Shown one piece after another: positions 4,050 to 33,593 of a DNA stretch of 64,000 bases. The stretch lies in NCBI GenBank assembly GCA_964599405.1, contig CAZRED010000002.1:44198-108197 (forward strand), in the 5' to 3' direction. Below the pieces are notes generated by a model. That model worked only from the letters and a program-made list of their open reading frames with translations. It had not been told where the DNA came from and did no database searches. The translations under genes and the position numbers were made by a program. Position 1 is the first letter of the stretch; every line of letters starts with the position of its first letter. The stretch is from an uncultured Candidatus Saccharibacteria bacterium (GTDB taxonomy: Bacteria; Patescibacteriota; UBA1384; 2-12-FULL-50-11).

Positions 4050-5279
4050 ATGCAGAAGGAATTCTTGCAACCTCTTAGTGGCTTCCGCGACTACGCTAAA
4101 CCGACGAAAGATCGGGTGCTTCGAGCTGTCCGTGAAACATTCAGGCGTTACGGCTACCAACCACTAGAGACGCCGTCGATTGAACGGCAAGAAATTCTTC
4201 TCGGTAAGCTCGGCGAAGATAGCCAAAAACAACTTTATTTGTTTGAAGATAACGGTGGCCGGAAAGTCGGGCTGCGCTACGATTTAACGGTGTCGTTAGC
4301 TCGCTACGTGGCCGGCAATTTGGGGGCATTGGCGCTGCCGTTTAAACGTTTTGAAATTGGCGACGTTTGGCGAGCCGAGCGAGCCCAAAAAGGGCGACAA
4401 CGCCAATTTACCCAAGCTGATGCGGATATTATTGGGCTGGATTCACTAGCAGCGGAAGAAGAACTGCTGCGAGTAATCGGCGACGTCGACAAAACGTTGA
4501 AATTGGGCTTGACCGTGCTGGTCAACGACCGCCGTTTAGCCCAAGCGCTACTCGAGAAAATTAACGTCCCGGCCGACAAACAGGCAGTATTTTTGCAGAT
4601 AATTGATAAAGCCAAAAAAGTTGAAGCTGGCGAGCTGGATAAAGAGTTGGGTCGGCTCGGGTTGAGCGATACTCAACTTAAACAAACACGGATGTACTTT
4701 TTGGCTGACAGTGAAGCGGATTTAGAGAAGCTGGACGTGTCGGAGACATTAAAACAACCACTAGAGCAGCTCGTAAAATTAGCCGAAGGCCTCGGCCTGA
4801 GAGCCCGGGTGGATTTGGGGATGGTTCGGGGGCTGGAGTACTATACCGGCACGATAATTGAAGCAGTTGCTGATGATTTCCCGTCCAGCTTGGTCGGTGG
4901 CGGCCGTTACGACAATCTGGTGGAGCAGTTTAACGGCCAAAAAGTACCGGCAGTCGGCATTTCTTTCGGTATTGATCGGATTGTTGACCTGCTCGATAGT
5001 CGCGCCCCTAGCGCCGAACCGGTGTTGTTTATTGTCAATCTGCCGGAAACCAAAAACGAACTAGAGCAGTGGGCCAGCGAGCTACGAGCGAGCGGAACCA
5101 ACGTCGAAATTTATCTGGATGCCAATGTGGAGATGGGCAAACAAATTAAGTACGCCTTCAAACGAGGGTTCCAAGAAGTCTATCTGCCGTTTGAGCCGGA
5201 GTGGCAGCGCGGCGAAGTCGTGGTCAAAGATTTGGAGACTGGCGATCAAAAAGCGGTAGCGCGCGCATCTTTGCAGTAA
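4050..5279 (+). CDS. hisS: histidyl-tRNA synthetase
   Basis: Class II HisRS motifs (LRYDLTVSLARYVA, GGGRYDNL, anticodon-binding C-terminus). ATG at 4050. Confidence 0.9.
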   Translation: MQKEFLQPLSGFRDYAKPTKDRVLRAVRETFRRYGYQPLETPSIERQEILLGKLGEDSQKQLYLFEDNGGRKVGLRYDLTVSLARYVAGNLGALALPFKRFEIGDVWRAERAQKGRQRQFTQADADIIGLDSLAAEEELLRVIGDVDKTLKLGLTVLVNDRRLAQALLEKINVPADKQAVFLQIIDKAKKVEAGELDKELGRLGLSDTQLKQTRMYFLADSEADLEKLDVSETLKQPLEQLVKLAEGLGLRARVDLGMVRGLEYYTGTIIEAVADDFPSSLVGGGRYDNLVEQFNGQKVPAVGISFGIDRIVDLLDSRAPSAEPVLFIVNLPETKNELEQWASELRASGTNVEIYLDANVEMGKQIKYAFKRGFQEVYLPFEPEWQRGEVVVKDLETGDQKAVARASLQ

Positions 5280-8155
5280 TGGCCGACAAAACCGACTTTC
5301 AGCAGAAATTTGCCAGTCAATTTGCCTTGGAAGAAGCGGTACTAGCCTACTGGCAGAAAAACCAAACTTTCGAAAAAACTCTCGAGCAAACCAAAAACGG
5401 CGAAGTTTTCTCCTTTTACGACGGTCCGCCGTTTATCACCGGTATTCCGCACTACGCGACCCTTTTGCCGAGCATCGCCAAGGACGTGATCCCCCGTTAT
5501 CAAACAATGAAAGGCCGCTACGTCCGGCGCATCTGGGGTTGGGATACTCACGGCTTGCCAGCCGAAAATCAGGTAGAAAAACAGCTCGGGCTGAAGACTA
5601 AAAAAGACATTGAAAAGCTCGGTGTCGATAAATTTATTGCCGCCTGCCGGCAGTACGTGGCTCAAACTTCTGATCAATGGCGTTGGTACATCGACCACAT
5701 TGGCCGCTGGGCCGAGCTGGATAAGGCCTATCGGACCGACCAGTTGAGCTATATGGAATCGGTGATATGGGCGTTCAAACAGCTCTATAACAAAGATTTA
5801 ATCTACCGCGGTCGCCGGGTGTCGCTGTACTGCACCCGCTGCGCCACGCCACTCTCGAAATTTGAAGTAACGATGGACGAAGGCAGTTATCGCGATGTCG
5901 TTGACCCAGGCGTGACGATGGCCTTTCGCTTGAAAAACGATGATGTCTACCTGTTAGCCTGGACCACCACCCCCTGGACGCTCCCGGCCAATATGGCCTT
6001 GGCGATCGATCCGAAAGCCGAATACGTCAAAGTCACAGATGGTAAAAAAAGTTATATTTTGGCGCATCAGGCGCTCGAGCGATTTCAGGACGGCAATCTC
6101 CAGGTACTCGAGCATATTCCTGGCAAGAAACTGGTTGGCGAGAGCTACGAGCCGCTCTTTAACTTTGTTCAAGAACCAACCGAGCCGGATTTCAAAATAT
6201 ACGGCGCGGATTTTGTCTCAATGGATGAGGGCACCGGTATTGTTCATATCGCTCCGGGCTTTGGCGAAGACGACACGAAATTGGGTGAAGCTAACGGTCT
6301 AACCACCCTCTTAACATTGGACGACGAGGGCCATTTTCTACCGGTTATTAAAGATTGGGCCGGAATGTTTTATCGCCAGGCCAACGAGCCAATTACGGCT
6401 AATTTGAAAGAGCGCGGGCATCTTTTCCGCGAGGAAAAAGTTACCCATTCCTATCCGCACTGCTACCGCTGCGACACGCCGCTGATCTACAAGTCGCAGG
6501 TGTCGTGGTATCTGAAAATTGATCAACTACGAGCGGATTTACTGAAGAAAAACAAAGAAATTAACTGGGTCCCCAAACATTTTGGCACGGGCCGGTTTAA
6601 ACATAATGTAGAAACGGCTCCGGACTGGTCGCTAAGTCGTACCCGCTACTGGGGGACGCCGATTCCGGTTTGGGAAACGGCGGATGGGGAGTTGTTTGTG
6701 CCGGAATCGGTGGCGGAGATCGAGAAACTTTCCGGCCAAAAAATCACCGACTTACATCGCCCGGCGATTGACGCAGTGGAGCTGAAACTGCCCAGCGGCA
6801 AGAAAGCCAAGCGAGTCAAAGAAGTGCTGGATGTTTGGTTTGAGAGTGGCTCCATGCCGTACGCTCAGGATCACTATCCGTTCGAACACGAACCAGAATT
6901 CACCAAACATCACCCGACCGACTTTATCATTGAATACACCGGCCAACTCCGCGGTTGGTTCTACTATCTCCATGTTTTGAGCAATGCCCTGTTTGGCAAA
7001 AATAGTTTTAGAAACGTGGCGGTAACTGGTGTGCTGATGGGTAACGATGGCCGGAAGATGAGTAAATCCTACGGCAATTATCCGGATCCGCGCCTAACGA
7101 TTGAAAAATACGGTGGTGAAAGCCTCCGGCTCTACTTTTTAACCAGTAAAATCATGTCCGGCGAAGATACGACGATTGCCGAGGAAGAAATTCGCGAGCA
7201 ATCCCGGTTGCTGAACGTGCTGCAGAATTCGTTTCAGTACTACATCACCTATAACCAATTCCGCCAGTCTGCGGCCAAACCAAAGCCACAGCTGTTAGAT
7301 AAATGGCTGTTAGTGCGGGCTAAGGAACTGGAGTTGGCCGTTGATGCGGGTTTGTCGGCGTTCGATTTTCAAGCTGCCGGAAAAGCCGTTCGGCCGTTCG
7401 TGGAGGATCTTTCCACTTGGTATATTCGGGCCAATCGCGATCGCTTTGTCGCCGGCGATGCGGCAGCGCTCGACACATTGGGCGAGGCACTGCGGCGTTT
7501 CGCTGTGGCGGTGGCGCCAATCTTGCCGTTTAGCGCCGAAACAATATATACAGCGCTTGCAGCGCTAGGTAATGCCAAGGAGTCGGTTCATCTGGAGAAT
7601 TTTCCGGTGACCAGCGAGCTATCCGGCGGTGAGCAAAAACTAGTTGATGATGTTGTCGAAATTCGGGAGATTTGTTCGGCCGGCAATATGTTGCGCTCGC
7701 AAGTAGGAATTTCGCTTCGTCAGCCACTGGGCAAGCTCTACATCGAGGGGAAGACCGTCGTTCAGGCCAGTAAAGACTACCAGCGCATTGTTACGGATGA
7801 GCTGAACGTCAAGGAAGTGGTTTTCGGCGCGCCGAAAAAGAAACTGGAAGAAACAAGCGTTGGCGAAGTAATGATTTATCTCGATACCGAGCTGACGGAA
7901 GAACTGAAGCAAGAAGGCCGTCTGCGCGAGCTGCTGCGCAAGCTCCAAGATGCCCGCAAAAAAGCCGGGCTCAACGTTGGTGAAAAAGTAGTATTGCGCT
8001 ACTACACCGAAGACCCAGAAATGTCAGAATTGTTCATGAAAAACACCAATGCCATCGTCGAGGCGGCCACGTTTTCCAAACTAGAATCTGTCGCTTCACC
8101 CAACGGCCTGGAAGAACTTTCCAGCGAGTCTATTAAATATTCTTTTAAAAAATAA
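5279..8155 (+). CDS. ileS: isoleucyl-tRNA synthetase
   Basis: Class I IleRS with a HYAT-type HIGH region, a KMSKS motif (GRKMSKS) and an editing CP1 domain. ATG at 5279 overlaps the hisS stop (TAATG). Confidence 0.9.
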   Translation: MADKTDFQQKFASQFALEEAVLAYWQKNQTFEKTLEQTKNGEVFSFYDGPPFITGIPHYATLLPSIAKDVIPRYQTMKGRYVRRIWGWDTHGLPAENQVEKQLGLKTKKDIEKLGVDKFIAACRQYVAQTSDQWRWYIDHIGRWAELDKAYRTDQLSYMESVIWAFKQLYNKDLIYRGRRVSLYCTRCATPLSKFEVTMDEGSYRDVVDPGVTMAFRLKNDDVYLLAWTTTPWTLPANMALAIDPKAEYVKVTDGKKSYILAHQALERFQDGNLQVLEHIPGKKLVGESYEPLFNFVQEPTEPDFKIYGADFVSMDEGTGIVHIAPGFGEDDTKLGEANGLTTLLTLDDEGHFLPVIKDWAGMFYRQANEPITANLKERGHLFREEKVTHSYPHCYRCDTPLIYKSQVSWYLKIDQLRADLLKKNKEINWVPKHFGTGRFKHNVETAPDWSLSRTRYWGTPIPVWETADGELFVPESVAEIEKLSGQKITDLHRPAIDAVELKLPSGKKAKRVKEVLDVWFESGSMPYAQDHYPFEHEPEFTKHHPTDFIIEYTGQLRGWFYYLHVLSNALFGKNSFRNVAVTGVLMGNDGRKMSKSYGNYPDPRLTIEKYGGESLRLYFLTSKIMSGEDTTIAEEEIREQSRLLNVLQNSFQYYITYNQFRQSAAKPKPQLLDKWLLVRAKELELAVDAGLSAFDFQAAGKAVRPFVEDLSTWYIRANRDRFVAGDAAALDTLGEALRRFAVAVAPILPFSAETIYTALAALGNAKESVHLENFPVTSELSGGEQKLVDDVVEIREICSAGNMLRSQVGISLRQPLGKLYIEGKTVVQASKDYQRIVTDELNVKEVVFGAPKKKLEETSVGEVMIYLDTELTEELKQEGRLRELLRKLQDARKKAGLNVGEKVVLRYYTEDPEMSELFMKNTNAIVEAATFSKLESVASPNGLEELSSESIKYSFKK

Positions 8156-10051: not shown

Positions 10052-10660
10052 TTAACCGCCGATAATCGGGTAGGGCTTGAACCAGTCCTTGAGTAGTTTC
10101 TTCAAGGTGTTGCCGACAGCCTTTACTTGGAACTCGCTGCCCTTCTCGATACCAGTCAAGAAGGAGCTCCCCGAGGCCTTGCCCTGGAGGGTGACGGCAT
10201 TTATTATCGGTTCTTGCTTGACGGCGTCAACCAGCCAGAGCTTGATCGTCACTGCGCCCTGTCTTTTCGGGAAAAGACCGCCAGATGTTCCCTGGCTGCT
10301 GGCGACGATGATCGGGAAGATCACCAATGTTGCGCCGACTCGCTTACCAATCTTGATGAGGTTGGCGCGATTTTGCTGTTCGTCGTCGCTGAAATTTATC
10401 TTCAGATCGGCGATCGCTTTGGCGACGGTGTCAGGAGCTACAACGGTAAAACCGTGGCTGGAGAATTCCGTCGCCAGCCAGTCGTGACCGGCTTTGATCT
10501 GCCGCTCCTGAAGTTCCACCCACTTATCGCCGCTCTGATTGATGATTGGCACGATTGCGACCTTAGTGCCTTTTGGGTAAGTCTGGGCTGAAGCGGCCGT
10601 GATGGCCACCAGCGCAAATGCGAATAAGATAATCAACTTGTTCATGAACATTTTCTCCAT
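10052..10660 (-). CDS. secreted hypothetical protein (signal peptide)
   Basis: N-terminal MNKLIILFAFALVAITAASA signal peptide. No known domain recognised. Confidence 0.45.
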   Translation of the reverse strand: MEKMFMNKLIILFAFALVAITAASAQTYPKGTKVAIVPIINQSGDKWVELQERQIKAGHDWLATEFSSHGFTVVAPDTVAKAIADLKINFSDDEQQNRANLIKIGKRVGATLVIFPIIVASSQGTSGGLFPKRQGAVTIKLWLVDAVKQEPIINAVTLQGKASGSSFLTGIEKGSEFQVKAVGNTLKKLLKDWFKPYPIIGG

Positions 10661-10800
10661 AAAGAGACGGGAATATTATAGAATAAATTTATTAGCGTAT
10701 CAAGGGATGCGGGGGCGTTTTTTGAAAACGCCTCATAATATTCTTGAGATTCCGACCAGAATCAGTTACAATAACCCGGCCAAATTGGCACAGGAGTATT

Positions 10801-11382
10801 TTGAAGTTTCGCTATTTAACACTTGTCACAACTCTCGTCACTTTGCTTCTCACCATACTAGTCATCGGTTGCGGTGGCGGCGGTGGTGGGAACTCGATTT
10901 TCCGTGGTTCGTGGTTGGGCGCTTGGAGCGACTACTACGAGGAAGATACCGGGTTCTACTCGGTCAACGTCAGCGGTAGCGGCAGTTTCAATGGAACTGC
11001 CACAAACGATCTGTGCGGTAGCTCTGGCTCCGCCACCGGTTCGTTCGGCAACAGCTCGACGAAGTTGAATATGAAGTTCAACGAGAACAACGTTTGCTAC
11101 AAGTACAGCGTTAAGGCCTCGGGCGACCCGATGACCCCATACGCAAACGGGTATTCGACAGTCGTCGATGCCAAGTACTACGACCGATTCGGGACCTATA
11201 TCGGCACCGTTGTCTGGGCGGTCTATATGGAGCGCAACTTTGCGATGGGACCGGACGCCCCAGCCCGGATTACGGTCAAGCAGTTGACCCCCAGGCTTTC
11301 CGGCGGCCAGCCCGTCGACATGAGTGCCATCAAGAAGGGCGACGGCAAACTGCCGAGCCCACCCATCCCCGATTCACCTTAA
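10801..11382 (+). CDS. hypothetical lipoprotein (Cys-Gly6 N-terminus). Start uncertain: TTG 10801 preferred, alternative TTG 10744.
   Basis: MKFRYLTLVTTLVTLLLTILVIGC|GGGGGG is a typical lipoprotein signal/lipobox. AGGAG sits 3 nt upstream of the 10801 TTG. Gly/Ser/Thr-rich mature protein. Confidence 0.45.
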   Translation: MKFRYLTLVTTLVTLLLTILVIGCGGGGGGNSIFRGSWLGAWSDYYEEDTGFYSVNVSGSGSFNGTATNDLCGSSGSATGSFGNSSTKLNMKFNENNVCYKYSVKASGDPMTPYANGYSTVVDAKYYDRFGTYIGTVVWAVYMERNFAMGPDAPARITVKQLTPRLSGGQPVDMSAIKKGDGKLPSPPIPDSP

Positions 11383-11395
11383 CGGTTGATCGGCC

Positions 11396-11433
11396 ACAGG
11401 GCAGTTCCAATTGGAGCTGTCCTGTTATTTTTT
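11396..11433 (+). terminator. rho-independent terminator
   Basis: acagggcag-(12 nt loop)-ctgtcctgt followed by tatttttt. Confidence 0.75.
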
Positions 11434-11504
11434 ACACCAGGGCGAACGAACCGTTATCCCTTCTGGCAAGTTTAATTTTCCGCCCAAGTAGCTATTATCC
11501 AATT

Positions 11505-11924
11505 ATGGCTGATGAATCGTTCGGGGTGATACCTTTTAGAAAAACCGAAACCGGGCTAGAGTTCCTGCTCGTTAAACATGCTCAAGGGCATTGGGGATTT
11601 CCGAAGGGTCATCCTATCGGTAACGAATCTCATATTGAGACAGCGTTGCGGGAGCTGAAAGAAGAAACGGGGGTTACTGACTGTAATATAATTGGCGATA
11701 AAACCTGGAAACAAAAATACACAATCGAAAAATCTGGTAATTCTACGGAGAAAATCGTTGAGTATTTTCTTGGCGAAGTACTTAGCGCTAATAAAAATGT
11801 AGACAGTAAAGAAATATTAGAATGTCGCTGGTGCAATTTCGAAGACGCTATAGAACTACTGTCACATCCCGAAAGTAAAGGCATGCTGGAGTCAGTATTT
11901 TCTTTCATAAACCCCAAACGATAA
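11505..11924 (+). CDS. Nudix hydrolase
   Basis: Nudix box GHWGFPKGHPIGNESHIETALRELKEETG (GX5EX7REUXEEXGU). Confidence 0.8.
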   Translation: MADESFGVIPFRKTETGLEFLLVKHAQGHWGFPKGHPIGNESHIETALRELKEETGVTDCNIIGDKTWKQKYTIEKSGNSTEKIVEYFLGEVLSANKNVDSKEILECRWCNFEDAIELLSHPESKGMLESVFSFINPKR

Positions 11925-12790
11925 TGGACATACCGAAAAAGATAAGTGACTTAGGCCTACAGCGAGGCCACTATATTGTAATTGGCAGCGGAGTAATGGG
12001 CGCTCTAAACTTGCGACCAATTAACGACATTGATTTGGTCGTTAACCCAAATAAATATGCAGAACTCAAGAACAGAGATTGTGTTGAAAAAGTTCATGAC
12101 GATGAAACCAGGGAGCTGCTCTTCGGTGTCTACGGAATTAAAACCAGCTGGGACTCACCTAATAGCGGCGATAATTTACAGGAGCTGCTTAGCGATTCAA
12201 TTGAAATTGAAGGTGTTGCGTATATTAGCCCCCAACGCTTACTACGTTGGAAGAAGCGGATGAAACGTGCTAAAGACAAGAAAGATATACTGTTTCTAGA
12301 AAAATTCCTAAATACTCAACAAGACAGATTCACAGAAAAACCAACTTTGTACATAATGTGCGGCTTACCATTTGCTGGTAAATCGAGGTTAGCAAAAGAG
12401 CTAAGCGAAAATCGTGGCTGGAAGGTAGTAGCAGTCGACGAAATTAAAACCAAACGTGGGCTACGTGATGTTTGGCAAGATATGAAACCAGAAGATTGGA
12501 CAGATATTTTTGCAGAGGCAGAGCGTCAAACGGAGAGGGAGTTATTAGGCGGTCGAAGTGTGATCTATGACTCAACTAACCACACCAAACATAGCCGGGA
12601 TAAATTGCGTGAGCTTGCAAAACGTTGCCATTGTTCAGCTAAGTTGATTCTGGTTGATGTGTCTCCTGATGTTGCCGAGTTTAGGTGGAAAGCCAATAAG
12701 GAGTCTGGCGAACGGATGGATTTGCCGGAGTGGGCTTTCCGAACGGCTCTTGGCGACTGGGAACCACCGGTAGGGGATGAGCAGGATTAG
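11924..12790 (+). CDS. fusion protein: minimal pol-beta-type nucleotidyltransferase (N-term) + P-loop kinase of the AAA_33/zeta-toxin/chloramphenicol-phosphotransferase-like class (C-term)
   Basis: N-terminal IGSGVMGALNLRPINDIDLVV (G[SG]…DxD NTase motif). C-terminal Walker A CGLPFAGKS plus DEIK/DSTN kinase-like motifs. The start overlaps the Nudix stop. Confidence 0.55.
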   Translation: MDIPKKISDLGLQRGHYIVIGSGVMGALNLRPINDIDLVVNPNKYAELKNRDCVEKVHDDETRELLFGVYGIKTSWDSPNSGDNLQELLSDSIEIEGVAYISPQRLLRWKKRMKRAKDKKDILFLEKFLNTQQDRFTEKPTLYIMCGLPFAGKSRLAKELSENRGWKVVAVDEIKTKRGLRDVWQDMKPEDWTDIFAEAERQTERELLGGRSVIYDSTNHTKHSRDKLRELAKRCHCSAKLILVDVSPDVAEFRWKANKESGERMDLPEWAFRTALGDWEPPVGDEQD

Positions 12791-13065
12791 ACACAAGACC
12801 GAAAGAGTGCGAACTCAAGTAGGTCTTAGCTTTTAGCGGGCTATCCTAGCGCTCGGGCAAATCCAACCGATAAAACATGTAACGTTTTTACAAAACTAGC
12901 TGAAACCAATTGATTTGTTACTAATATTTCTATAAAATTTCTCTGACTTAGCTCGTTTACATTTTGGCTGACAGGTAACTTTGGGCGGTAAGTGTTATAA
13001 GCAAGAACTGCTTTTAACAAACCGACTTTAGATTCAACAGATTCAGCTGAAAAGGAATCCGCAAG

Positions 13066-14136
13066 ATGAAAAAATTTAACTCTACTTCCCGTGAAATGCA
13101 GGACAATTTTTTCGCTTGCCGAGGTTGGAGGCGAAAAAAATGTCCACACTGTTTCGGAGAATACTACACGAAACGCGACCTACCACACTGCGGCTCTTAC
13201 CTGTGTGCTGGCAGCTATTCGTTCCTTTCTTTCCCTTCGCCAAAGGCACAGCTCGATATGGCGGCATGTGTTCGCAGGCTACAGACGTCCTTCATTGGCC
13301 ACGGCTACCAACTTCACCGACCGATCGCAGTTGTCCGTAATAACGAGCGAACCCTTTTCGCAAGTACGGCTGGCCAGATTTATGACGATCTGATCTACGG
13401 ACAGATATCAGAGAGCAGCTCGAAGTGGCACTTAGTAGTTCAACCGGTGATCCGGTTGCAGGAGATCGATCTCATTAGCTCCATCGACGGGATCTCCAGC
13501 TCGTTCATACATAGTGCAACTGAGTGTTGGAACACTACACAGGGTAACCACCTTGAGACGTTTGATCGCTGGTTGGATTTCTTTTCCGCCCTCGGTCTAC
13601 ATGCGGGCGGTTTCTGTCTTAAGATCGAGCGTGACACCAATAATTGGGCAGGACGCACTATCACGTCAGAGATGCTTCGGGTGCATTACGGTGGGCTTGA
13701 GGTTGGTGTTGCAAATTTCTTTTTCGACATTTCTCAGCCAAACGGTTCCCTGGCGACTCTGAGCGATGTTGGCGTAGGCCTAGAACGATTAATATGGGCC
13801 GTAAACAAATCGCCTATGTATTTGGATAGTATTGGACCTCCCCCGTGTGTTAGAATGCACACGAGGGTAGTGCTCCACGCAATCCGTACGGCGACGCTTA
13901 TGGCGGGTTCGGGTGTTGTGCCAGGTCATAGAAACCATGGGTCAAAGCTTCGCGCTATGATCAGGTTAGTGACAGAGGAGGCACATCATCTCAATCTTTA
14001 CGAACTCGTAAGCCATTACTACCGACAGTGGTCCACATTTGCGGATTATCTTTCGGTACCTCAGGAGCAGGTTTACTTGATAATTTGGGGAGAAATTAAT
14101 CGAGAACTCAGTCTTGGGGCTGACAGGAATCAGTGA
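13066..14136 (+). CDS. truncated alanyl-tRNA synthetase catalytic-core paralog (class II aaRS fold) with an N-terminal Cys-rich insertion. Lacks the tRNA-recognition, editing and C-Ala domains.
   Basis: Colinear with the AlaRS N-terminal domain: NFFACRGW ~ FLDFFHSKGH; RTLFASTAGQIYDDLIYGQ ~ PTLLFTNAGMNQFKDVFLG; LEVGVANFFFDIS…SDVGVGLERLIWAV ~ IEIWNLVFMQFNR…VDTGMGLERIAAVL; LHAIRTATLMAGSGVVPGHRNHGSKLRAMIRL ~ [32 protein letters not shown]. A CPHC…HC…C insertion of about 45 aa sits after the first motif. Confidence 0.6.
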   Translation: MKKFNSTSREMQDNFFACRGWRRKKCPHCFGEYYTKRDLPHCGSYLCAGSYSFLSFPSPKAQLDMAACVRRLQTSFIGHGYQLHRPIAVVRNNERTLFASTAGQIYDDLIYGQISESSSKWHLVVQPVIRLQEIDLISSIDGISSSFIHSATECWNTTQGNHLETFDRWLDFFSALGLHAGGFCLKIERDTNNWAGRTITSEMLRVHYGGLEVGVANFFFDISQPNGSLATLSDVGVGLERLIWAVNKSPMYLDSIGPPPCVRMHTRVVLHAIRTATLMAGSGVVPGHRNHGSKLRAMIRLVTEEAHHLNLYELVSHYYRQWSTFADYLSVPQEQVYLIIWGEINRELSLGADRNQ

Positions 14137-14146
14137 GAAAAACCAT

Positions 14147-14821
14147 ATGAAAACAAAAACCAAACGTATCTTTCTCGGCGGGGGTGGGGATGCAGAGGAC
14201 TCGAAGCTTATTGATGAACAATTCGTCAAGAGCATTGATCCATCAAAACCTACCATATACGTCCCTAACGCTATGCCCTCAGAGGGCTATCAGTCCTGCC
14301 TGGACTGGTTCCGACCAACAATGAAGGCGCTCGGTATAGCTACAATCGAAATGTGGGAGGATCTTCTCCCCCACCGCCCAATCAACGACATATCTGGGAT
14401 TTACATCGGAGGAGGCGATACGGTGAAGTTGCTAGATGAAATTCGTACCGCTGGCTTTGATCAGTACCTCTCCCAAGTAGCGCAAAGTGGCATCCCGTTG
14501 TACGGTGGTAGCGCTGGTGCGATTGTCTTTGGCGAGGACATTAGAACCGCACCAGAAGCGAGCCACCTAACACCAGGTGATGCAAAGGGACTTAGGATCC
14601 TAGTAGGTCACTCAATCATGTGTCACTACGAACAGCAAGATGAGACGCAAGTCCGGACACTCCAAAAAACAATTGGGATGCCAATCATTGCTATTCCCGA
14701 AAAAGCCGGTGCATGCATCGAGGGAAAAACACTGACGAATTACGGCTCAGTTCCGCTGTATATCTTCCGGGACAACGAGGAAACAGGGCTAGACACAGGA
14801 GAATCCCTTGAACTCGAATAA
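14147..14821 (+). CDS. peptidase family S51 protein (peptidase E / cyanophycinase-like class I glutamine amidotransferase-like fold)
   Basis: IYIGGGDTVKLL…YGGSAGAIVFGEDIRT parallels PepE IVIVGGGNTFQLL…YIGWSAGANLACPTIRT (Ser nucleophile motif). ATG at 14147 chosen; an upstream TTG at 14114 would overlap the preceding gene. Confidence 0.65.
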   Translation: MKTKTKRIFLGGGGDAEDSKLIDEQFVKSIDPSKPTIYVPNAMPSEGYQSCLDWFRPTMKALGIATIEMWEDLLPHRPINDISGIYIGGGDTVKLLDEIRTAGFDQYLSQVAQSGIPLYGGSAGAIVFGEDIRTAPEASHLTPGDAKGLRILVGHSIMCHYEQQDETQVRTLQKTIGMPIIAIPEKAGACIEGKTLTNYGSVPLYIFRDNEETGLDTGESLELE

Positions 14822-14828
14822 CAAAATT

Positions 14829-14868
14829 GGGGGTGTATCACTTAGCGTGCGTACACCCCCTTCTTTTT
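14829..14868 (+). terminator. terminator-like hairpin immediately upstream of the MAT start codon
   Basis: gggggtgta-(14 nt)-tacaccccc followed by ttcttttt. The RBS AAGGA and the ATG of the next gene lie within 10 nt downstream. Confidence 0.55.
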
Positions 14869-14875
14869 AAGGACA

Positions 14876-16123
14876 ATGTCTTACTCCTTTGGACCAAGCG
14901 CAATTAAAAAAGGAAACCTGACTGTATATTCCCGTAGCCCGGTCTGGGACAGTGAGTTCGAGACAATTGAAAGAAAAGGAATCGGGCATCCAGATACTAT
15001 AGCCGATATTTTAGCTAGTAAAGTAAGTCAGGAGTATTCGAGGTATACCATTACACATTGTGACAAGCTCGTTCTTCATCACCAGGTAGATAAACTCATG
15101 ATTATTGGTGGAAAAACTAAAGTCTATTTTGGCGGAGGGGAGTTCACTGAGCCAATTCGTATTATTGTTGCCGGTAGAGCAACATATAACTACAAGAACC
15201 TGGCTATCCCCGTTGAAAATATTGTGCTTAATACAATTAAGGCATATTTTCTGAAACATTTCCCGATGGTAAATCCAGAAGAAGATTTAGTTATTGAGAA
15301 TAGACTCACTACGTACCCTGGACCAGGAACAATCACAACATCGGCGGGTGCTATTGCTAGGATGTTTAATCCTAGAACCGCGAAAGAAGTAAGAGGGTAC
15401 GAAAAATATGTAGCAAATGACACTTCTTACTGCATCTCTTATTATCCTTATTCTTCGCTCGAGACGGCCGTCCTTGGACTGGAGTCTTATTTACAGTCAC
15501 TACAAATTAAGAAAAAGTTTCGGTGGATTGGCTCGGACGTCAAGATAATGGCAGTAAGGAATGGCAACAATGTGGAAGTAACTATGTGCATTCCACAAAT
15601 ATCCGGACAAGTAGAGTCGCTTAATAACTACTGGGAAAACTTAGAAATAATCAGCCCGCTGGTTAACGAGTTTCTTAATAAGAAGTGCCCAAAGTATGAT
15701 TTTAATATCTCTATTAATACAAAGGACGATTACGAGAGGTTCAACGTCTACCTAACTTACACCGGGGCATCGTTATCGGGAGATATTGGTGTGGTTGGGC
15801 GTGGCAACAGAACTAACGGACTCATTACTTCCAACCGGCCGATGAGTGCAGAAGGTACAAATGGTAAAAACCCAAGATACTATTCAGGATTTATATATGG
15901 CGTACTAACAAAACAAATATCGAAGGCACTATTCGATAAGTTGGGGAAACCTGCCGTAGTTGAGATAGTCTCTCAAAACGGGGGGAATTTATTAGAACCT
16001 TGGGAGGCAAGAATCGTTTGCGAAGCAGATCCAAAGAAAATCCAGAAGGTATATGAGTCTTGTTTGAGTAAAATACCCCGTATTACAACAGACTTTATTC
16101 GGGGCAAGATTGTGAATTACTAA
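14876..16123 (+). CDS. archaeal-type S-adenosylmethionine synthetase (methionine adenosyltransferase, PF01941 type)
   Basis: Near-colinear with M. jannaschii MAT: [13 protein letters not shown]; [24 protein letters not shown]…IVAGRAT; [14 protein letters not shown]; [20 protein letters not shown]…[28 protein letters not shown]. Not the bacterial MetK fold. Confidence 0.85.
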
Positions 16124-16130
16124 TACAGGT

Positions 16131-16622
16131 ATGAAGTACCAACCCCTTTTGCGCCACATCGAGATAAAGAGATCCGCTAGAGACGAAGACCTGGCGATAG
16201 TAGTTTTTAAACCCTCATGTCCCCGTGAGGCGATAGCCCGGTTTAGGAGTTATTGCTCAGAGAACCATATCAGTATTTTGCAAAAGAAAGAGACCCTACT
16301 CTCTCGAGATGCTGTTGTCGCTCTTTACCCTAAAATCTTTTCGTTTTCCAATGAGGATCTGAAATTTGGACTCGCTTGGAAGAAACAAACGATTGATTAC
16401 CTAACTTCTGCGCCGAGCAGATGTTTCTTAGTAGGGGGAGAAGATGTTTATAGTAAGTTGTCAAAATATAAATACCGCCTTCGTGACCGGTATGGAAAAA
16501 TTACCCATCCTAAGGCAGTTTTATCTACTGAAGATTTTTTTGAAAAAGTTATAAAAAACATCGTTCATGTTATTGATGAGCACGAGCTCCAAAACGGTCT
16601 CTGGGTATTATTTGATAACTAG
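16131..16622 (+). CDS. nucleoside-diphosphate-kinase-fold protein (divergent NDK-like)
   Basis: AIVVFKPSCP ~ NDK FSIIKPNAV; NIVHVIDE at the position of the catalytic NxxHGSD His; overall length and spacing match the NDK fold. Confidence 0.45.
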   Translation: MKYQPLLRHIEIKRSARDEDLAIVVFKPSCPREAIARFRSYCSENHISILQKKETLLSRDAVVALYPKIFSFSNEDLKFGLAWKKQTIDYLTSAPSRCFLVGGEDVYSKLSKYKYRLRDRYGKITHPKAVLSTEDFFEKVIKNIVHVIDEHELQNGLWVLFDN

Positions 16623-17131
16623 CGGCTATTCTTAATAAATTCTTTGATGACTTGAATGTCCCGGAGCTGTTTTTCTCCATGTAGATAGCTCTTATACCGG
16701 ACCATCTTGTCTGGCTTCATCAATTTCAATCTCTTCCCAGCCCAGTTAACAGGATATGTGTCATTCAAACTGTACCTGAAGATTTTCCACTCAGAACTTG
16801 CATCGTCAAAAATTTTTTGTGAGTCCCCATTGGTTAGTTCTATTATTTGACCTTTATAATTCAAAGCCATCATCAGAACTACCCACTCGCTGTCTATATA
16901 CAATTCTGGCCCAAATTGCACAAATTTCCCAACTTTTTTGAGCAAGCGAGGAAAATCTTTCTCTTGTATATCAATATCAATGTCGTTAATTGGTCTGTCG
17001 GCACCGTAGAAGCGTGCGGCCACTCCGCCCAAGACTTGGTATGGGATATTCTCTTCTTCTAGAATAGAGATGATCCACTTCAGCGCCACGTTAACTCGTG
17101 GAGTTAGGCTGATGGGGCTTAATTCAAGCAT
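16619..17131 (-). CDS. small-molecule nucleotidyltransferase of the Lnu(A)/lincosamide-nucleotidyltransferase-like family
   Basis: YQVLGGVAARFYGADRPINDIDIDI resembles LnuA YWLDGGWGVDVL…HRDIDIDF; about 170 aa, as in that family. Confidence 0.6.
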   Translation of the reverse strand: MLELSPISLTPRVNVALKWIISILEEENIPYQVLGGVAARFYGADRPINDIDIDIQEKDFPRLLKKVGKFVQFGPELYIDSEWVVLMMALNYKGQIIELTNGDSQKIFDDASSEWKIFRYSLNDTYPVNWAGKRLKLMKPDKMVRYKSYLHGEKQLRDIQVIKEFIKNSR

Positions 17132-17154
17132 CTTTTTATGCCATAATCATTACA

Positions 17155-17652
17155 ATGTTTAAAGGGTTGGAGCAAATCAATACTAGCAGTAACGCTAATC
17201 AAAACTTTGCGTTAGTCCTCCAGCTAACGGAGAAGATAGATAACAATGCAGACGCTTCATCGGTTATCAATGAGCTGATAAAAATATACTGGGATTTAGA
17301 CGGAGTCCCTCGCTACCATATAATAGTAAGTTTTATCGAGCATAACCGTACAGACGTATTAGGATTCCTTAAAAAGGTTTTATCTGAAGACACAAGCGAA
17401 CTGATCCGTCATGAGGCCGCTTTTGGTATCGGACAGATGGGAGACTCTACGCAACAGTTCGCACTAGCCGATTCTCTTAAGAACGATACTTCAGCTATTG
17501 TACGTCATGAAGCCGCTATTGCGTTAGCAACTGTTGGAAGCCGGCAATCTATAGGAGTCCTGCAAGAAGTAATAAGTGACGCTAGCGAAGAAGAAGTAGT
17601 GACTGAGTCGGCCGAGTATAGCCTCCGTCTGATTATAGAAAGTAGTAAATAA
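17155..17652 (+). CDS. HEAT/PBS-lyase-type repeat protein
   Basis: Two tandem repeats IRHEAAFGIGQMGD / VRHEAAIALATVGS typical of HEAT-like (PBS lyase) repeats. Confidence 0.55.
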   Translation: MFKGLEQINTSSNANQNFALVLQLTEKIDNNADASSVINELIKIYWDLDGVPRYHIIVSFIEHNRTDVLGFLKKVLSEDTSELIRHEAAFGIGQMGDSTQQFALADSLKNDTSAIVRHEAAIALATVGSRQSIGVLQEVISDASEEEVVTESAEYSLRLIIESSK

Positions 17653-17658
17653 AAATAA

Positions 17659-17687
17659 GGCAACCACATAATGTGGTTGCCTCTTTT
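17659..17687. terminator. bidirectional rho-independent terminator between convergent genes
   Basis: ggcaaccaca-taa-tgtggttgcc with T-rich runs on both sides. Confidence 0.75.
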
Positions 17688-17697
17688 GGGTTGTCTG

Positions 17698-18765
17698 TTA
17701 CCTCCCAGCGATAAAGTCCTCGACTTTCTGCCTGGCTATCCCCAGTGACACTAGGTGCAGTGGGTGTTTGAAGAAGTAGGCGCTCCAATCCTGGTAGCCA
17801 GAGAGGTTTCTGTCTAACGATAGCTTCATAGCGCGAACTGCATCAACCATCACTCCAGCGTTGTTTGGGGAGTCTTCGACTGACATCTTCATCTCAATCT
17901 CAAAGGGGAAGTCACCAAACTGCCTTCCCTTGATATTGATGTAAGCAATCTTATTATCGCCGAGGAATCGTATATAGTCAGCCGGGACTACCTTTATGTC
18001 CTCGGTGCCAGCTTCGAAGATGATTGGATCGGTCTTTGACACCTTCTTCGAAGTAAGACGCAGATGATCTGTGAGGTTGTCAAAATCCATATTCCCACCT
18101 ATGTCCAGTTGGTAGGAATTCTCTACGATTTGTCCACGCTCGCGGACTAGAGATACGAGTGTTCGGTGAAGGATAGTGGCACCAACCTGGCTTTGGATGT
18201 CATCCCCGGCGCACGGAATACCGGCTTGCCTAAACTTCTCCGCCCAGACTGGGTCGGATGCAATAAATTCAGGCACGCCGTTTATAAACGCAACTCCTGC
18301 GTCAAGACAGGCTTGGGCGTAAAACCGCGTCGCTTCCTGTGACCCTACCGGCAAGAAAGAAATACAAATTTCCGTATCGCTCTCTCTAAGTTTCCTGACA
18401 ACAGATTCCGGCTCTTCTCGGAGGGGGAAGTACTCACGCATATGCGGTGCAATTCCATCTCCAATAAAACCCGCCTCAACTGCTACGCCATATGTAGGCA
18501 CGCAAGCGAACTTATGGGAGTTCGTGGGCAACACCCAAATAGCTTCGGAAATGTCTTTGCCAATTTTATTAGCGTTTACGTCGAAAGCGGCAACTACCTG
18601 TATATCTGCAATGAGATATCCGCCAAAGTCATTGTGCATGAGGCCCGGTATGGGAGGTGATGTTTGGCCAACGTCCTTATAGTACTCGAGGCCCTGGATG
18701 AAGGAACTGGCGCAATTTCCCACGCCAACGATTGCGATTTGAATCTTTTTGTTTTTTCTAGTCAT
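17698..18765 (-). CDS. myo-inositol-1-phosphate synthase family (NAD-dependent cyclitol synthase)
   Basis: N-terminal Rossmann IAIVGVGNCASSFIQG (cf. GxGGNNGST); GDDIQSQVGATILHRTLVSLVRERG ~ MIPS GDD(I/L)KSGQTK…; SYQLDIGGNMDF ~ SYNHLGNNDG. Confidence 0.65.
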   Translation of the reverse strand: MTRKNKKIQIAIVGVGNCASSFIQGLEYYKDVGQTSPPIPGLMHNDFGGYLIADIQVVAAFDVNANKIGKDISEAIWVLPTNSHKFACVPTYGVAVEAGFIGDGIAPHMREYFPLREEPESVVRKLRESDTEICISFLPVGSQEATRFYAQACLDAGVAFINGVPEFIASDPVWAEKFRQAGIPCAGDDIQSQVGATILHRTLVSLVRERGQIVENSYQLDIGGNMDFDNLTDHLRLTSKKVSKTDPIIFEAGTEDIKVVPADYIRFLGDNKIAYINIKGRQFGDFPFEIEMKMSVEDSPNNAGVMVDAVRAMKLSLDRNLSGYQDWSAYFFKHPLHLVSLGIARQKVEDFIAGR

Positions 18766-18944
18766 TGTCTTTTCCTGTAAAGGTCCAGGGAGCGGTTCTC
18801 CCTTATGGTTTGGAATTCTACAGTTTTGTTAATTGATAATCAATACAATAACTGGTGATTCTAAAAATTATTTATCAAGTAGTTGATTAAGAGCTATCTG
18901 GTCGTGCAAGTCTTGCTTACGATCCTAAATATGGGCATAATATC

Positions 18945-18973
18945 TTGACTCTTCTCGAGAAGTGTGGTATAAT
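18945..18973 (+). promoter_or_regulatory. sigma70-like promoter (TTGACT-17 bp-tgGTATAAT, extended -10) for the GNAT gene. Predicted near-leaderless transcript.
   Basis: -35 at 18945-18950, -10 at 18968-18973 with a TG at -15/-14. The ATG at 18988 lies about 8 nt from the predicted TSS with no SD. Confidence 0.55.
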
Positions 18974-18987
18974 TTTAGCTCGAGTGA

Positions 18988-19593
18988 ATGCACATGAACA
19001 GAATCAACTTTAGACTCGCAAGAGGGGAAGAAGAGCTGTATGAAATATTAGCTCTGCGGTATAGAATCTTTGCGCTCGAAAAGGGGTGGATCGCAACGAA
19101 CCCAAGTGGCATTGACTTTGACCAGTGGGATTTCGCAAGCAGCCACCTTTGTGCCGTGGATGAATCTGGCAAGGTACTTGGTACCATGAGATTGATTCAC
19201 AATTCGCCCTTCGGATTCCCTGGTGAAGCCGCTTGTCCGTGCTTAATTGGTTCGTCGAAAGATCGGACTTATGAAGTATCGAGACTTGCTGTCGAGGAAC
19301 AGGAAAGAGGAAGACGCTCGCTAATCCTTATTGGTCTCTGCAGGTTAGTGCCTAGACTGGCAAAACTGCACAAGATTGATGATTGGATTGTGGTAGTGGA
19401 CAAGCCGGTTGCAAGAATTCTGAAAGGCCTAGGTTTCAACTTTGACTTCACTGGAGAGGTTGTTGACCATTTGGGATCACCGTGCGTTCCGTTGAGATGC
19501 ACCATGACCGAGGCAAGAAGAGTTCTATACCAGCCAAACTTATCGGAGCTTTTGGCAACTCACATCGAGGAAGCCTATGAGACTATCGAATGA
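18988..19593 (+). CDS. GNAT-fold N-acyltransferase of the autoinducer-synthase/FeeM N-acyl-amino-acid-synthase-like family
   Basis: LRYRIFALEKGW…VSRLAVEEQERGR pattern typical of PF13444 / exosortase-associated N-acyl amino acid synthases. Confidence 0.55.
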   Translation: MHMNRINFRLARGEEELYEILALRYRIFALEKGWIATNPSGIDFDQWDFASSHLCAVDESGKVLGTMRLIHNSPFGFPGEAACPCLIGSSKDRTYEVSRLAVEEQERGRRSLILIGLCRLVPRLAKLHKIDDWIVVVDKPVARILKGLGFNFDFTGEVVDHLGSPCVPLRCTMTEARRVLYQPNLSELLATHIEEAYETIE

Positions 19594-19600
19594 CCCATGA

Positions 19601-19625
19601 CGGCCGCATTACTGCGGCCGTTTTT
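19601..19625 (+). terminator. rho-independent terminator
   Basis: cggccgca-ttac-tgcggccg followed by ttttt. Confidence 0.8.
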
Positions 19626-19661
19626 GTTTAGATTTTTATCTCTAGGTGGTACTTTGGAAAT

Positions 19662-20465
19662 ATGGAAATATTTAATTATTCAGATTTTACACAGAGAAAC
19701 ATTGGAATAATATCCGTTTCTGATCAAGAAAAAGTGCGAACCTCTACGATCGCAATTGCAGGATGTGGGGCAGATGGTGGAGCACCCGCTATATCACTAG
19801 CAAGACTCGGCGTTAGTAATTTTAGGCTAGCAGATCCAGATGTTTTTGATTACAGCAATATTAATAGGCAGGAAGGTGCATTTACTGACACCATTAATAC
19901 GAAGAAAGCAAGGGAGATTGAATTAATAATAAAAAAAATAAATCCAGAGGCTAATGTCACAATCTACACAGAGGGTATTAATGAAGACAATGTGAATGAG
20001 TTTATTGAAGGGTCAGATATCGTCTTGGACGAGATAGACTATAGAAAGCCAAAGTATGCGCTTCTATTACACATAGTGGCGAGGAAACTGAATATCCCAG
20101 TAATTACTACTGTATCAGTTGGGTGGAACGCTTTTCTTTTCTATTTTGATCCATCTGGACTCACGTTTGAGGAGTACGTAAAAAAGGAGCCTCTTTCTGT
20201 TGAAGATAATTTTGAAGTAAACCCTTCTGCTTACGCACCAGAGTTACCCTCATATATTTCTGAAGAACTTTTAAAGGATATACTTTCAGAAAAAGTGGAG
20301 ATACCAGTTGTAGATCCCGCTGTTAGATTGGCGTCTGCACTAGCAAGCTCCTTTTGTATTTTTTGGTTGACTGGCGCAAAGAAGATAATGGCTGTTCCCC
20401 ATTATTACTCGGCGGGTGATTTATTACTGAAGCAGGAAAGCTTTAATAATTTGCGTAGGTCTTAA
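19662..20465 (+). CDS. ThiF/MoeB/E1-like adenylyltransferase (stand-alone, 267 aa)
   Basis: Rossmann nucleotide-binding motif IAIAGCGADGGAPAISLARLGV. No rhodanese, E2 or peptide-clamp domain, and no adjacent ThiS/MoaD-like ORF. Confidence 0.75.
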   Translation: MEIFNYSDFTQRNIGIISVSDQEKVRTSTIAIAGCGADGGAPAISLARLGVSNFRLADPDVFDYSNINRQEGAFTDTINTKKAREIELIIKKINPEANVTIYTEGINEDNVNEFIEGSDIVLDEIDYRKPKYALLLHIVARKLNIPVITTVSVGWNAFLFYFDPSGLTFEEYVKKEPLSVEDNFEVNPSAYAPELPSYISEELLKDILSEKVEIPVVDPAVRLASALASSFCIFWLTGAKKIMAVPHYYSAGDLLLKQESFNNLRRS

Positions 20466-33502: not shown

Positions 33503-33593
33503 AAATGTCCTCTGAGTGTGACAGTGACAATGGGGGTGGTCTGTGGCAATATGAGCCCATGCAAAAAAGAGGGAGAAATGGCCTGGGTGGTCG

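Follow-up and report, generated by a model that had tools for sequence, protein, structure and literature searches.

We identified, in a 64-kb stretch of DNA from an uncultured Candidatus Saccharibacteria bacterium (contig CAZRED010000002.1; the whole stretch of 64,000 nucleotides is hereafter called the window), a gene for a stand-alone catalytic core that resembles alanyl-tRNA synthetase (AlaRS) and that is coupled, in the window and in related loci, to genes for a Peptidase_S51 serine hydrolase (S51) and an archaeal-type methionine adenosyltransferase (MAT, or SAM synthetase). On balance, the AlaRS-like protein is probably an active, non-translational aminoacyl ligase that works with S51 and MAT. 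More specifically, and more tentatively, we propose that it is an adenylate-forming amino-acid ligase whose acceptor would be a non-tRNA molecule linked to S-adenosylmethionine (SAM), and that it is paired with S51 acting as a deacylase. The fullest form of this proposal, in which the trio would be a tRNA-independent system that makes and reversibly uncaps aminoacylated SAM or a SAM-derived nucleoside, mainly in Candidate Phyla Radiation (CPR) bacteria and DPANN archaea, is possible though rather doubtful. We directly observed the fold, the conservation of the catalytic residues, the family of relatives, the coupling of the three genes and the variable neighbours around them.

The AlaRS-like gene occupies positions 13066-14136 (+ strand) as one unbroken open reading frame (ORF) of 356 amino acids, and is an intact, genuine gene. 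Its product consists of an archaeal-type aminoacylation domain followed by the initial helices of the tRNA-recognition domain. Residues 9-256 align with positions 2-260 of the 902-position NCBIfam profile of archaeal AlaRS (TIGR03683; E = 1.4e-13), and the sole meaningful sequence matches in the PDB are archaeal AlaRS structures, from Archaeoglobus fulgidus (2ztg and 3wqy; E = 1.5e-9) and Pyrococcus horikoshii (E = 1e-4). An AlphaFold2 model built from an alignment of 37 relatives (predicted local distance difference test score 89, predicted TM-score 0.88) overlays on AlaRS: the top Foldseek matches are again archaeal enzymes (2ztg, 3wqy and 2zze; TMq 0.77-0.80, identity 18-21%), with bacterial and human AlaRS catalytic fragments ranked next and GlyRS alpha subunits after them. 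These results bear out the colinearity with the N-terminus of AlaRS, and the class II motifs, that an initial annotation made from the letters alone had described. The protein nonetheless misses the cutoffs of both alaS equivalogs (50 vs 744.7 bits for TIGR03683 and 20.9 vs 457 bits for TIGR00344).

The C-terminal, helical part (13852-14136, + strand) corresponds approximately to the start of the AlaRS tRNA-recognition domain. The anticipated match to Pfam tRNA-synt_2c was found there (residues 263-343 against profile positions 269-354, the region of the RRIIRRA-like helix), yet at 19.1 bits it lies under the curated threshold of 30.3. Of the four domains of AlaRS (the catalytic domain, that for tRNA recognition, the editing domain and C-Ala), the set is thus incomplete, the protein ending inside the tRNA-recognition helices. 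The window copy is also about 35 C-terminal residues shorter than the usual family length of 391 amino acids. We considered a frameshift or pseudogene as the cause and rejected it: a search in all frames yielded no remnant of the tail, and the closest relative (P0002, 67% identity) lacks the same segment of about 35 residues, so that the window copy is best regarded as a natural short-tail variant. Nor are the missing AlaRS domains supplied downstream, in agreement with the initial annotation. The next gene encodes Peptidase_S51, and a split alaS with a neighbouring partner was rejected: with an E. coli AlaRS sequence entered by hand as the query, neither the rest of the window nor about 90 related loci yielded any sequence coding for the AlaRS tRNA-recognition, editing or C-Ala parts. 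The isoelectric point of the protein was considered as a hint of RNA binding and proved uninformative.

The main observation of the initial annotation, homology to the AlaRS core, therefore stands on profile, structural and model evidence (TIGR03683, PDB, AlphaFold2), but its second element, a Cys-rich insertion of about 45 amino acids, does not. The four cysteines (C26, C29, C42 and C47; CxxC...C....C) lie in an N-terminal zinc ribbon (13141-13206, + strand) that aligns residue for residue with archaeal AlaRS ('RKRCPKCGKHFWT...ICGDPPCE' in 2ztg, its CPKC...CGDPPC element). None of the four varies in the family alignment of 37 sequences; by clade, their conservation is 100% in clade 1 and 80-86% in clade 2. 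Judged from this alignment, the Cys-rich element is an ancestral, native feature of archaeal-type AlaRS and appears as an extension only relative to the bacterial enzyme.

The adenylation machinery is strictly conserved. We compared 67 full-length members, drawn from two clades with only 25-33% identity between them, and Q126, P127, R130, F147, W194, D234, G238, E240 and R241 are present in 100% of them. The set includes the class II motif 2 core QPVIR (Q126, P127 and R130; 13441-13455, + strand) and, in the motif 3 region SDVGVGLER (S233, D234, G238, E240 and R241; 13762-13788, + strand), the last four of the listed residues. We take R130, W194 and D234 to be the equivalents of R69, W170 and D235 of E. 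coli AlaRS; the Arg69 and Asp235 counterparts that the initial annotation singled out for checking are accordingly kept. Retention of the pocket-closing Trp and of Gly suggests a small substrate amino acid. Two pocket positions, assigned from the alignments, split by clade, with V/I215 and N217 in clade 1 and D215 and A217 in clade 2, and because these differences are systematic the amino acid may not be the same in the two clades.

Homologues of the AlaRS-like protein were found with E values down to 1e-160, far beyond chance. A word-indexed search returned 70 clusters, and a profile search of 1.84 billion representatives gave 714 matches at E<=1e-3 and 259 at E<=1e-30, so that the family comprises at least 259 clusters (50% identity, E<=1e-30), nearly all of 350-420 amino acids and typically of about 390. 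Clade 1 contains sequences at least 36% identical to the window protein and clade 2 those at 27-35%; clade 3 is distant, with E values against the family profile of about 1e-53 to 1e-67. The named carriers belong mostly to the CPR (Saccharibacteria, Shapirobacteria) and DPANN (Woesearchaeota, Aenigmatarchaeota), together with a few other metagenome-assembled genomes (MAGs). No relatives were detected in IMG/VR, among INPHARED phages or among PLSDB plasmids, and a phage or plasmid origin of the gene was rejected. Our literature searches returned no description of the family or of its association with S51 and MAT. It is a widespread, uncharacterised family that would add a new ancestor and new partners to the ligases derived from aminoacyl-tRNA synthetases (aaRSs).

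The association with S51 and MAT was assessed in loci drawn from assemblies, GTDB genomes and JGI metagenomes, which were annotated with hidden Markov models built from the window cassette; about 70 loci had enough flanking sequence to be used for partner counts. In the window, the S51 gene (14147-14821, + strand; PF03575, E = 1.7e-22), whose product has a class I glutamine-amidotransferase-like fold, has an alternative TTG start at 14114 that overlaps the stop codon of the AlaRS-like gene. It lies directly 3' of the AlaRS-like gene in 69 of 71 loci, commonly with an overlap of a few bases, and natural AlaRS-like-S51 fusions (P0042, P0049, L032 and L042) carry S51 at the C-terminus. The catalytic triad S133, H171 and E196 (numbered from the 14114 ORF) is kept in 62, 62 and 61 of 62 sequences, respectively. 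The best matches of the S51 protein are PepE-type peptidases; since it scores under the equivalog cutoffs of both PepE and cyanophycinase, the cassette S51 is considered a separate subfamily. The third core gene, encoding the archaeal-type MAT (14876-16123, + strand; PF01941, E = 6.9e-96; archaeal MATs in the PDB, E = 7e-59), is found inside the cassette in 67 of the 68 loci with room for it. The GHPD, DTS, GRGNR and GKNP motifs are kept in cassette MATs, which have an extra loop, and the window MAT scores below the NCBIfam equivalog cutoffs (295 vs 435-577). The coupling to S51 and an archaeal-type MAT lies outside what the initial annotation covered, as does the link to SerRS in a sister clade described below.

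Several side observations concern these partner genes. At L006 (9934-11171) the MAT of an otherwise intact cassette is split into several ORFs by frameshifts; the sister contig has an intact copy of 415 amino acids. The same locus and its sister contig carry a second S51 paralogue about 2.5 kb downstream of the first. ARAGORN called a tRNA-like element at the same place in the 5' part of the S51 gene in three related loci, L002 and L003 (11201-11283) and L025 (2591-2673), naming it tRNA-Ser(cga) or giving it a 4-base anticodon under the label 'tRNA-???'; it called no equivalent in the window, and this recurrent call inside a coding sequence is probably a false positive.

The three proteins could act together as follows. 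The AlaRS-like enzyme would first use ATP to convert a small alpha-amino acid (of the size of Ser, Ala or Gly) into an aminoacyl-adenylate. The aminoacyl group would then be passed to a hydroxyl or amine of a non-tRNA acceptor, for which the simplest candidate would be SAM, or a SAM-derived or SAM-tailored small molecule of the adenosine, sugar or cyclitol type; because the minimal module has three genes only, the acceptor would come from common metabolites. In a third step, S51 would remove or relay the aminoacyl group, in proofreading, in the uncapping of a protected product or in transfer. Such roles are suggested because the S51 members PepE and cyanophycinase cleave after an N-terminal residue with a free amine, which is the type of bond that an aaRS-like ligase would make. 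Next door or fused at the C-terminus, S51 stands where AlaRS has its editing domain, and the trio may have evolved by recruitment of an AlaRS core as a small-molecule ligase, with an S51 peptidase in place of that domain. We infer adenylate formation, amino-acid size, a non-tRNA acceptor and the roles of SAM and S51 in this scheme. The product may form a new class of aminoacyl-nucleosides, serving as an aminoacyl-adenylate mimic aimed at seryl-tRNA synthetase (SerRS) or as a signalling or protective conjugate. A similar logic of capping and uncapping is known from blasticidin biosynthesis. The AcmD/AcmF/AcmE trio of ascamycin biosynthesis also indicates that such capping logic exists in nature (PMC12945691).

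In the window, the cassette and its neighbours are ordered as genes for a Nudix hydrolase, a nucleotidyltransferase-kinase, the AlaRS-like protein, S51, MAT, a 163-amino-acid protein, a nucleotidyltransferase-like protein (- strand), a HEAT-repeat protein and a member of the inositol-phosphate-synthase family (- strand). The Nudix hydrolase (11505-11924, + strand; PF00293, E = 1.9e-18) is a variable accessory, and the NUDIX protein of L007 belongs to a neighbour family with members close to the cassette in four other loci. The next accessory (11924-12790, + strand) is a P-loop kinase of the AAA_33/KTI12/PSTK-like type (AAA_33, E = 1.4e-18; KTI12, E = 3e-11; PSTK TIGR03574, E = 1.8e-5) with a minimal N-terminus that is putatively nucleotidyltransferase-like, according to our reading of a GS...DxD motif. 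The 163-amino-acid protein (16131-16622, + strand) has a homologue in L006 and gave no Pfam, NCBIfam or PADLOC match; a relationship to the NDK-like neighbour of L015 was rejected, the likeness not being significant. The nucleotidyltransferase-like accessory of 170 amino acids (16619-17131, - strand) matches NTP_transf_5 weakly (E = 0.0027) and is 52% identical to its L006 homologue. The myo-inositol-1-phosphate-synthase family enzyme (17698-18765, - strand; PF01658, E = 3.8e-27), a clade 1 accessory, matches TIGR03450 with E = 8e-113 yet scores below the cutoff (377 vs 638). In 13 non-redundant loci, the window and 12 others, such a gene stands no more than 4 kb from that for the AlaRS-like protein; it is 81% identical in L002, L003 and L012.

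Guanine-cytosine (GC) content falls to 0.42-0.46 over approximately 12000-22000, the flanks being at about 0.51; this stretch includes the cassette together with the adjoining GNAT and ThiF genes, and the drop suggests horizontal acquisition. The same cassette is found with different flanks in different genomes, one of them with a serine recombinase upstream, and a neighbour family including this cassette-flanking recombinase occurs at four loci. No integrase or tRNA genes were found in the window, and no Rfam element (riboswitch, T-box or tRNA-like) matched at threshold in 10500-20500.

Beside the cassette, the window encodes a FeeM/LuxI-like GNAT protein (18988-19593), a ThiF/E1-like protein (19662-20465) and a histidine kinase of the HisKA_7TM type (20465-22756), along with a response regulator. 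The cassettes of L002 and L021 likewise have at their flanks a histidine kinase (40% identity over the C-terminal 239 amino acids) and a weakly similar ThiF protein (E = 1.6e-7); in these loci a GNAT gene and an ORF of 30 amino acids stand just upstream of ThiF (L002, 13633-18545), an arrangement that recalls MccA/MccB. The GNAT, ThiF and histidine kinase genes may represent a second module that travels with the cassette. Elsewhere in the window, we noted a 409-amino-acid HisRS-like protein (a Pfam match to the catalytic domain only), a 984-amino-acid class I synthetase with DUF5915 and a short MetRS of 476 amino acids (4050-8155 and 41693-43123), as well as an unusual fusion of a PilB/T2SSE-type ATPase to an N-terminal HU-like domain (Bac_DNA_binding / HU-HIG; 31553-33601, - strand). 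Together with GatB, LigA and UvrD, these ordinary synthetase genes make for a dense housekeeping content, as would suit a small bacterial genome, possibly of the CPR.

Accessory genes in the wider family differ by clade. Clade 1 cassettes are accompanied by dTMP-kinase or deoxynucleoside-kinase-type kinases that resemble viperin-associated kinases, and by inositol-phosphate synthase, histidine phosphatases, a HAD phosphatase, Nudix, an NDK-like protein and class I methyltransferases. Their radical-SAM/SPASM neighbours belong to no known family and pass no NCBIfam cutoff. We rejected prokaryotic viperin as their identity, since they carry a SPASM domain and their matches to pVip are confined to the generic N-terminal core. 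In PADLOC-DB 2.0, the AlaRS-like, S51 and MAT proteins gave no match to defence-system models; apart from the radical-SAM matches to the pVip core, the only resemblances were those of the accessory kinases to VakA and PDC-M51B. Within clade 2, a full-length canonical SerRS adjoins the cassette in 18 loci, which represent at least four AlaRS-like lineages (25-33% identical) and at least four gene arrangements, and tRNA-Ser genes lie beside several clade 2 cassettes. In one clade 2 lineage, at L045 (5096-6831) and L046, a thymidylate-synthase-like gene and one for a deoxynucleoside kinase come after a cassette of MAT, AlaRS-like, S51 and SerRS genes; the set is reminiscent of nucleotide-modification pathways.

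Fusions are seen in clade 3, where the AlaRS-like protein is joined to a class I SAM-methyltransferase-type domain (P0154, assigned by Pfam; P0206, assigned by motif reading and a weak CbiT match) or to a 290-amino-acid domain that has no assignment (P0159). The neighbours there encode glycosyltransferases (GT1 and GT2), a polysaccharide deacetylase, a DegT or class III aminotransferase, a GFO/IDH/MocA oxidoreductase and radical-SAM proteins, and the clusters also contain the archaeal-type MAT. Across the family, methyltransferase and radical-SAM/SPASM genes are recurrent cassette neighbours and, like the methyltransferase-type fusions, connect the family with the use of SAM. Taken as a whole, the accessories, which deal with phosphorylated nucleosides, cyclitols or sugars, and SAM, point away from translation and towards small molecules that are phosphorylated or glycosidic. 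Two loci have other surroundings: in L009/L017 (5580-8468), from an Aenigmatarchaeota MAG, a type IIG restriction-modification enzyme (MmeI-like) is encoded some 3 kb away from the cassette, and in L003 the cassette is near a PemK toxin and a serine recombinase. Defence-island or mobile contexts are conceivable at these loci, and the pattern is not general.

Stand-alone aaRS cores with intact adenylation chemistry and non-tRNA acceptors are known: MshC, GluQRS (YadB), EpmA (PoxA) and AsnA act on the amine of a sugar, a diol of a modified base, a lysine in a protein and ammonia, respectively. Their ancestors are CysRS, GluRS, LysRS and AspRS, not AlaRS, and we know of none that is coupled to an S51 hydrolase or a SAM synthetase. 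By analogy, MshC, GluQRS, EpmA and AcmF (PMC12945691) provide a precedent for truncated aaRS cores that aminoacylate non-tRNA acceptors. Inositol-phosphate synthase, GT1 and deacetylase, which occur in parts of the family, bring to mind the mycothiol pathway (Ino1, MshA, MshB and MshC). No glycosyltransferase or deacetylase was found in the window, and GT1, the deacetylase and DegT occur in the distant clade 3 only. The initial annotation had suggested a biosynthetic ligase comparable to the SerRS-like amino-acid:carrier-protein ligases, which are also truncated class II cores activating Gly and Ala for a non-tRNA acceptor. An operon of enzymes suits the general idea of an aaRS-derived biosynthetic ligase, but the particular analogy fits poorly, as those ligases have another aaRS ancestor and need a phosphopantetheine carrier protein. 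No carrier-protein or phosphopantetheinyl transferase family (PP-binding, ACPS) was present among the window neighbours, the Pfam tables of the loci or the selected neighbours that were scanned, most neighbours in the metagenome loci (L021-L089) having only been clustered.

Several points weigh against a SAM-linked, non-tRNA ligase. The case for SAM as a substrate, as opposed to a supply of cofactor, is contextual, and the acceptor is a candidate. Many cassettes have no recognisable SAM consumer, and the MAT is unexplained unless the AlaRS-like enzyme or S51 uses SAM. In CPR and DPANN genomes, the archaeal-type MAT, and likewise SerRS, could be the copy that serves housekeeping. The amino-acid specificity is a guess taken from the alignment. 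The remaining points concern RNA, and underlie the rival that survives best: a minimal RNA-charging enzyme, whose core would aminoacylate a CCA end, on a tRNA or a tRNA-like acceptor stem, without reading G3:U70 and for which S51, standing at the place of the editing domain, would be a trans-editing deacylase. We consider this unlikely, yet a serious rival, because small AlaRS fragments and a mini-AlaRS do charge RNA and because clade 2 keeps a tRNA-reading Asn close to SerRS and tRNA-Ser genes. The domain boundaries closest to those of the AlaRS-like protein are found in E. coli AlaRS368N and Nanoarchaeum equitans AlaRS-alpha, and the latter, on its own, weakly charges minihelices (RNA acceptor stems) in a G:U-independent manner (PMC11392972). 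The Tupanvirus mini-AlaRS of 461 amino acids, a natural AlaRS that lacks an editing domain, a C-Ala domain and the canonical G3:U70-reading Asn and Asp, is functional in charging tRNA (PMC10036535). In A. fulgidus AlaRS, with which the family shares its archaeal type and zinc ribbon, U70 is read by N359, and G3:U70 by N359 together with D450 (PMC11392972). The N359 equivalent is position 288, which is Asn in 83% of clade 2, and three basic residues of the helical domain (R274, R296 and R346) are kept in the family.

The same comparisons also set the protein apart from an RNA-charging AlaRS. Position 288 is His in the window protein and in 81% of clade 1, and the D450 region lies past the C-terminus. 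AlaRS-alpha also comes from a DPANN archaeon, but it is a bona fide AlaRS half with Asn359 and a beta partner, whereas the AlaRS-like family is only about 20% identical to archaeal AlaRS, far under the TIGR03683 cutoff, and has no beta partner nearby. Compared with the Tupanvirus enzyme, the AlaRS-like protein is about 100 residues shorter and highly divergent. Since the window encodes LigA, GatB, UvrD and PilB and is therefore bacterial, a bacterial-type alaS would be expected. RNA charging would furthermore leave unexplained the near-obligate MAT and the kinase, inositol-phosphate-synthase, radical-SAM and glycan neighbours.

The system closest in concept to the proposed ligase is AcmF, likewise a truncated AlaRS that has neither an editing nor a C-Ala domain, which acts on an adenosine-type small molecule in the company of the full-length AlaRS AcmD and of AcmE, a hydrolase that removes the aminoacyl group (PMC12945691). 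If the AlaRS-like protein worked as AcmF does, an adenosine-type molecule would occupy the ATP/AMP site and the aminoacyl group would come from an aminoacyl-tRNA (in clade 2, Ser-tRNA made by SerRS). The result would be an aminoacyl-nucleoside that might inhibit an aaRS, with S51 serving in uncapping or immunity and SerRS as the donor-charging enzyme or a resistant copy. The functional trio would then be the same, the repeated adjacency of SerRS and tRNA-Ser genes in clade 2 would be accounted for, and the product of MAT is itself a 5'-substituted adenosine. We nevertheless judge this an improbable explanation. AcmF uses an Ala-tRNA donor and has lost adenylation residues (N219Q and D232E; PMC12945691), whereas all of them are retained in the AlaRS-like family, and the invariance of D234 and of the ATP-binding R130 and R241 argues for real use of ATP. 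AcmF also has the whole tRNA-recognition domain, and the AlaRS-like protein is shorter, as judged from the description of AcmF and not from its sequence. AcmE is an alpha/beta hydrolase to which S51 is not homologous, and the AlaRS-like family has Peptidase_S51 and a near-obligate archaeal-type MAT instead. In the window clade, no neighbouring aaRS belongs to the cassette, and neither an export gene nor a resistance gene other than SerRS was recognised.

The pairing of a synthetase with a protein of glutamine amidotransferase (GATase) fold, fusions included, is a hallmark of amidotransferases. The AlaRS-like protein could in that case adenylate a carboxylate while S51 supplied ammonia, in chemistry of the MurT/GatD, CobQ or AsnA type, and S51 does show weak matches to GATase_3 and PdxT. 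This two-part amidotransferase is very improbable, given that the nucleophile is an invariant Ser, in the Ser-His-Glu triad typical of S51 peptidases, and not the Cys of a glutaminase, and that PepE-type peptidases are matched best. Still less probable is a housekeeping alpha subunit of a split alaS. Widely separated halves are known in Nanoarchaeota, which belong to the DPANN (PMC11392972), and many of the AlaRS-like carriers belong to the CPR or DPANN. The protein has diverged strongly from AlaRS, however; its gene lies in a bacterial genome, within the low-GC stretch, is coupled to S51 and MAT, and in some genomes stands in glycan gene clusters. Identical cassettes have different flanks, one with a serine recombinase, and neither the 64-kb window nor any locus fetched was found to contain an AlaRS-beta gene.

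Extra aaRS copies act as immunity genes in some antibiotic clusters, and the initial annotation had raised a decoy or immunity role; we give almost no credence to an inactive protein that binds an AlaRS inhibitor, because R130, F147, W194, D234, E240 and R241 are invariant in relatives only about 25% identical, and the protein is coupled to two enzymes of active type (by triad and motifs) and bears little resemblance, in a bacterium, to the host AlaRS that a decoy should mimic. Divergence from AlaRS, mobility of the cassette, conserved catalytic residues and enzyme partners together disfavour both the split alaS and the decoy.

AlaRS is regarded as the most architecturally conserved of the synthetases. 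A review of aaRS paralogues from 2022 includes no descendant of the AlaRS core (PMC9437257), and AcmF, reported in 2024, is, AlaX editing fragments aside, the only AlaRS-core paralogue that our literature searches returned (PMC12945691). Here we describe a large conserved family in which the adenylation machinery is kept while the tRNA-handling and editing parts are exchanged for S51 and SAM-synthetase partners, a family that bears on the minimal size of a functional AlaRS core. If its product were a new aminoacyl-nucleoside or aminoacyl-sugar, the trio would constitute a new route of tRNA-independent aminoacylation and a possible source of natural products resembling aaRS inhibitors. Three 'hypothetical' genes that keep company in bacteria and archaea alike would also gain a function open to test; they are concentrated in the CPR and DPANN, organisms whose metabolism is poorly understood.

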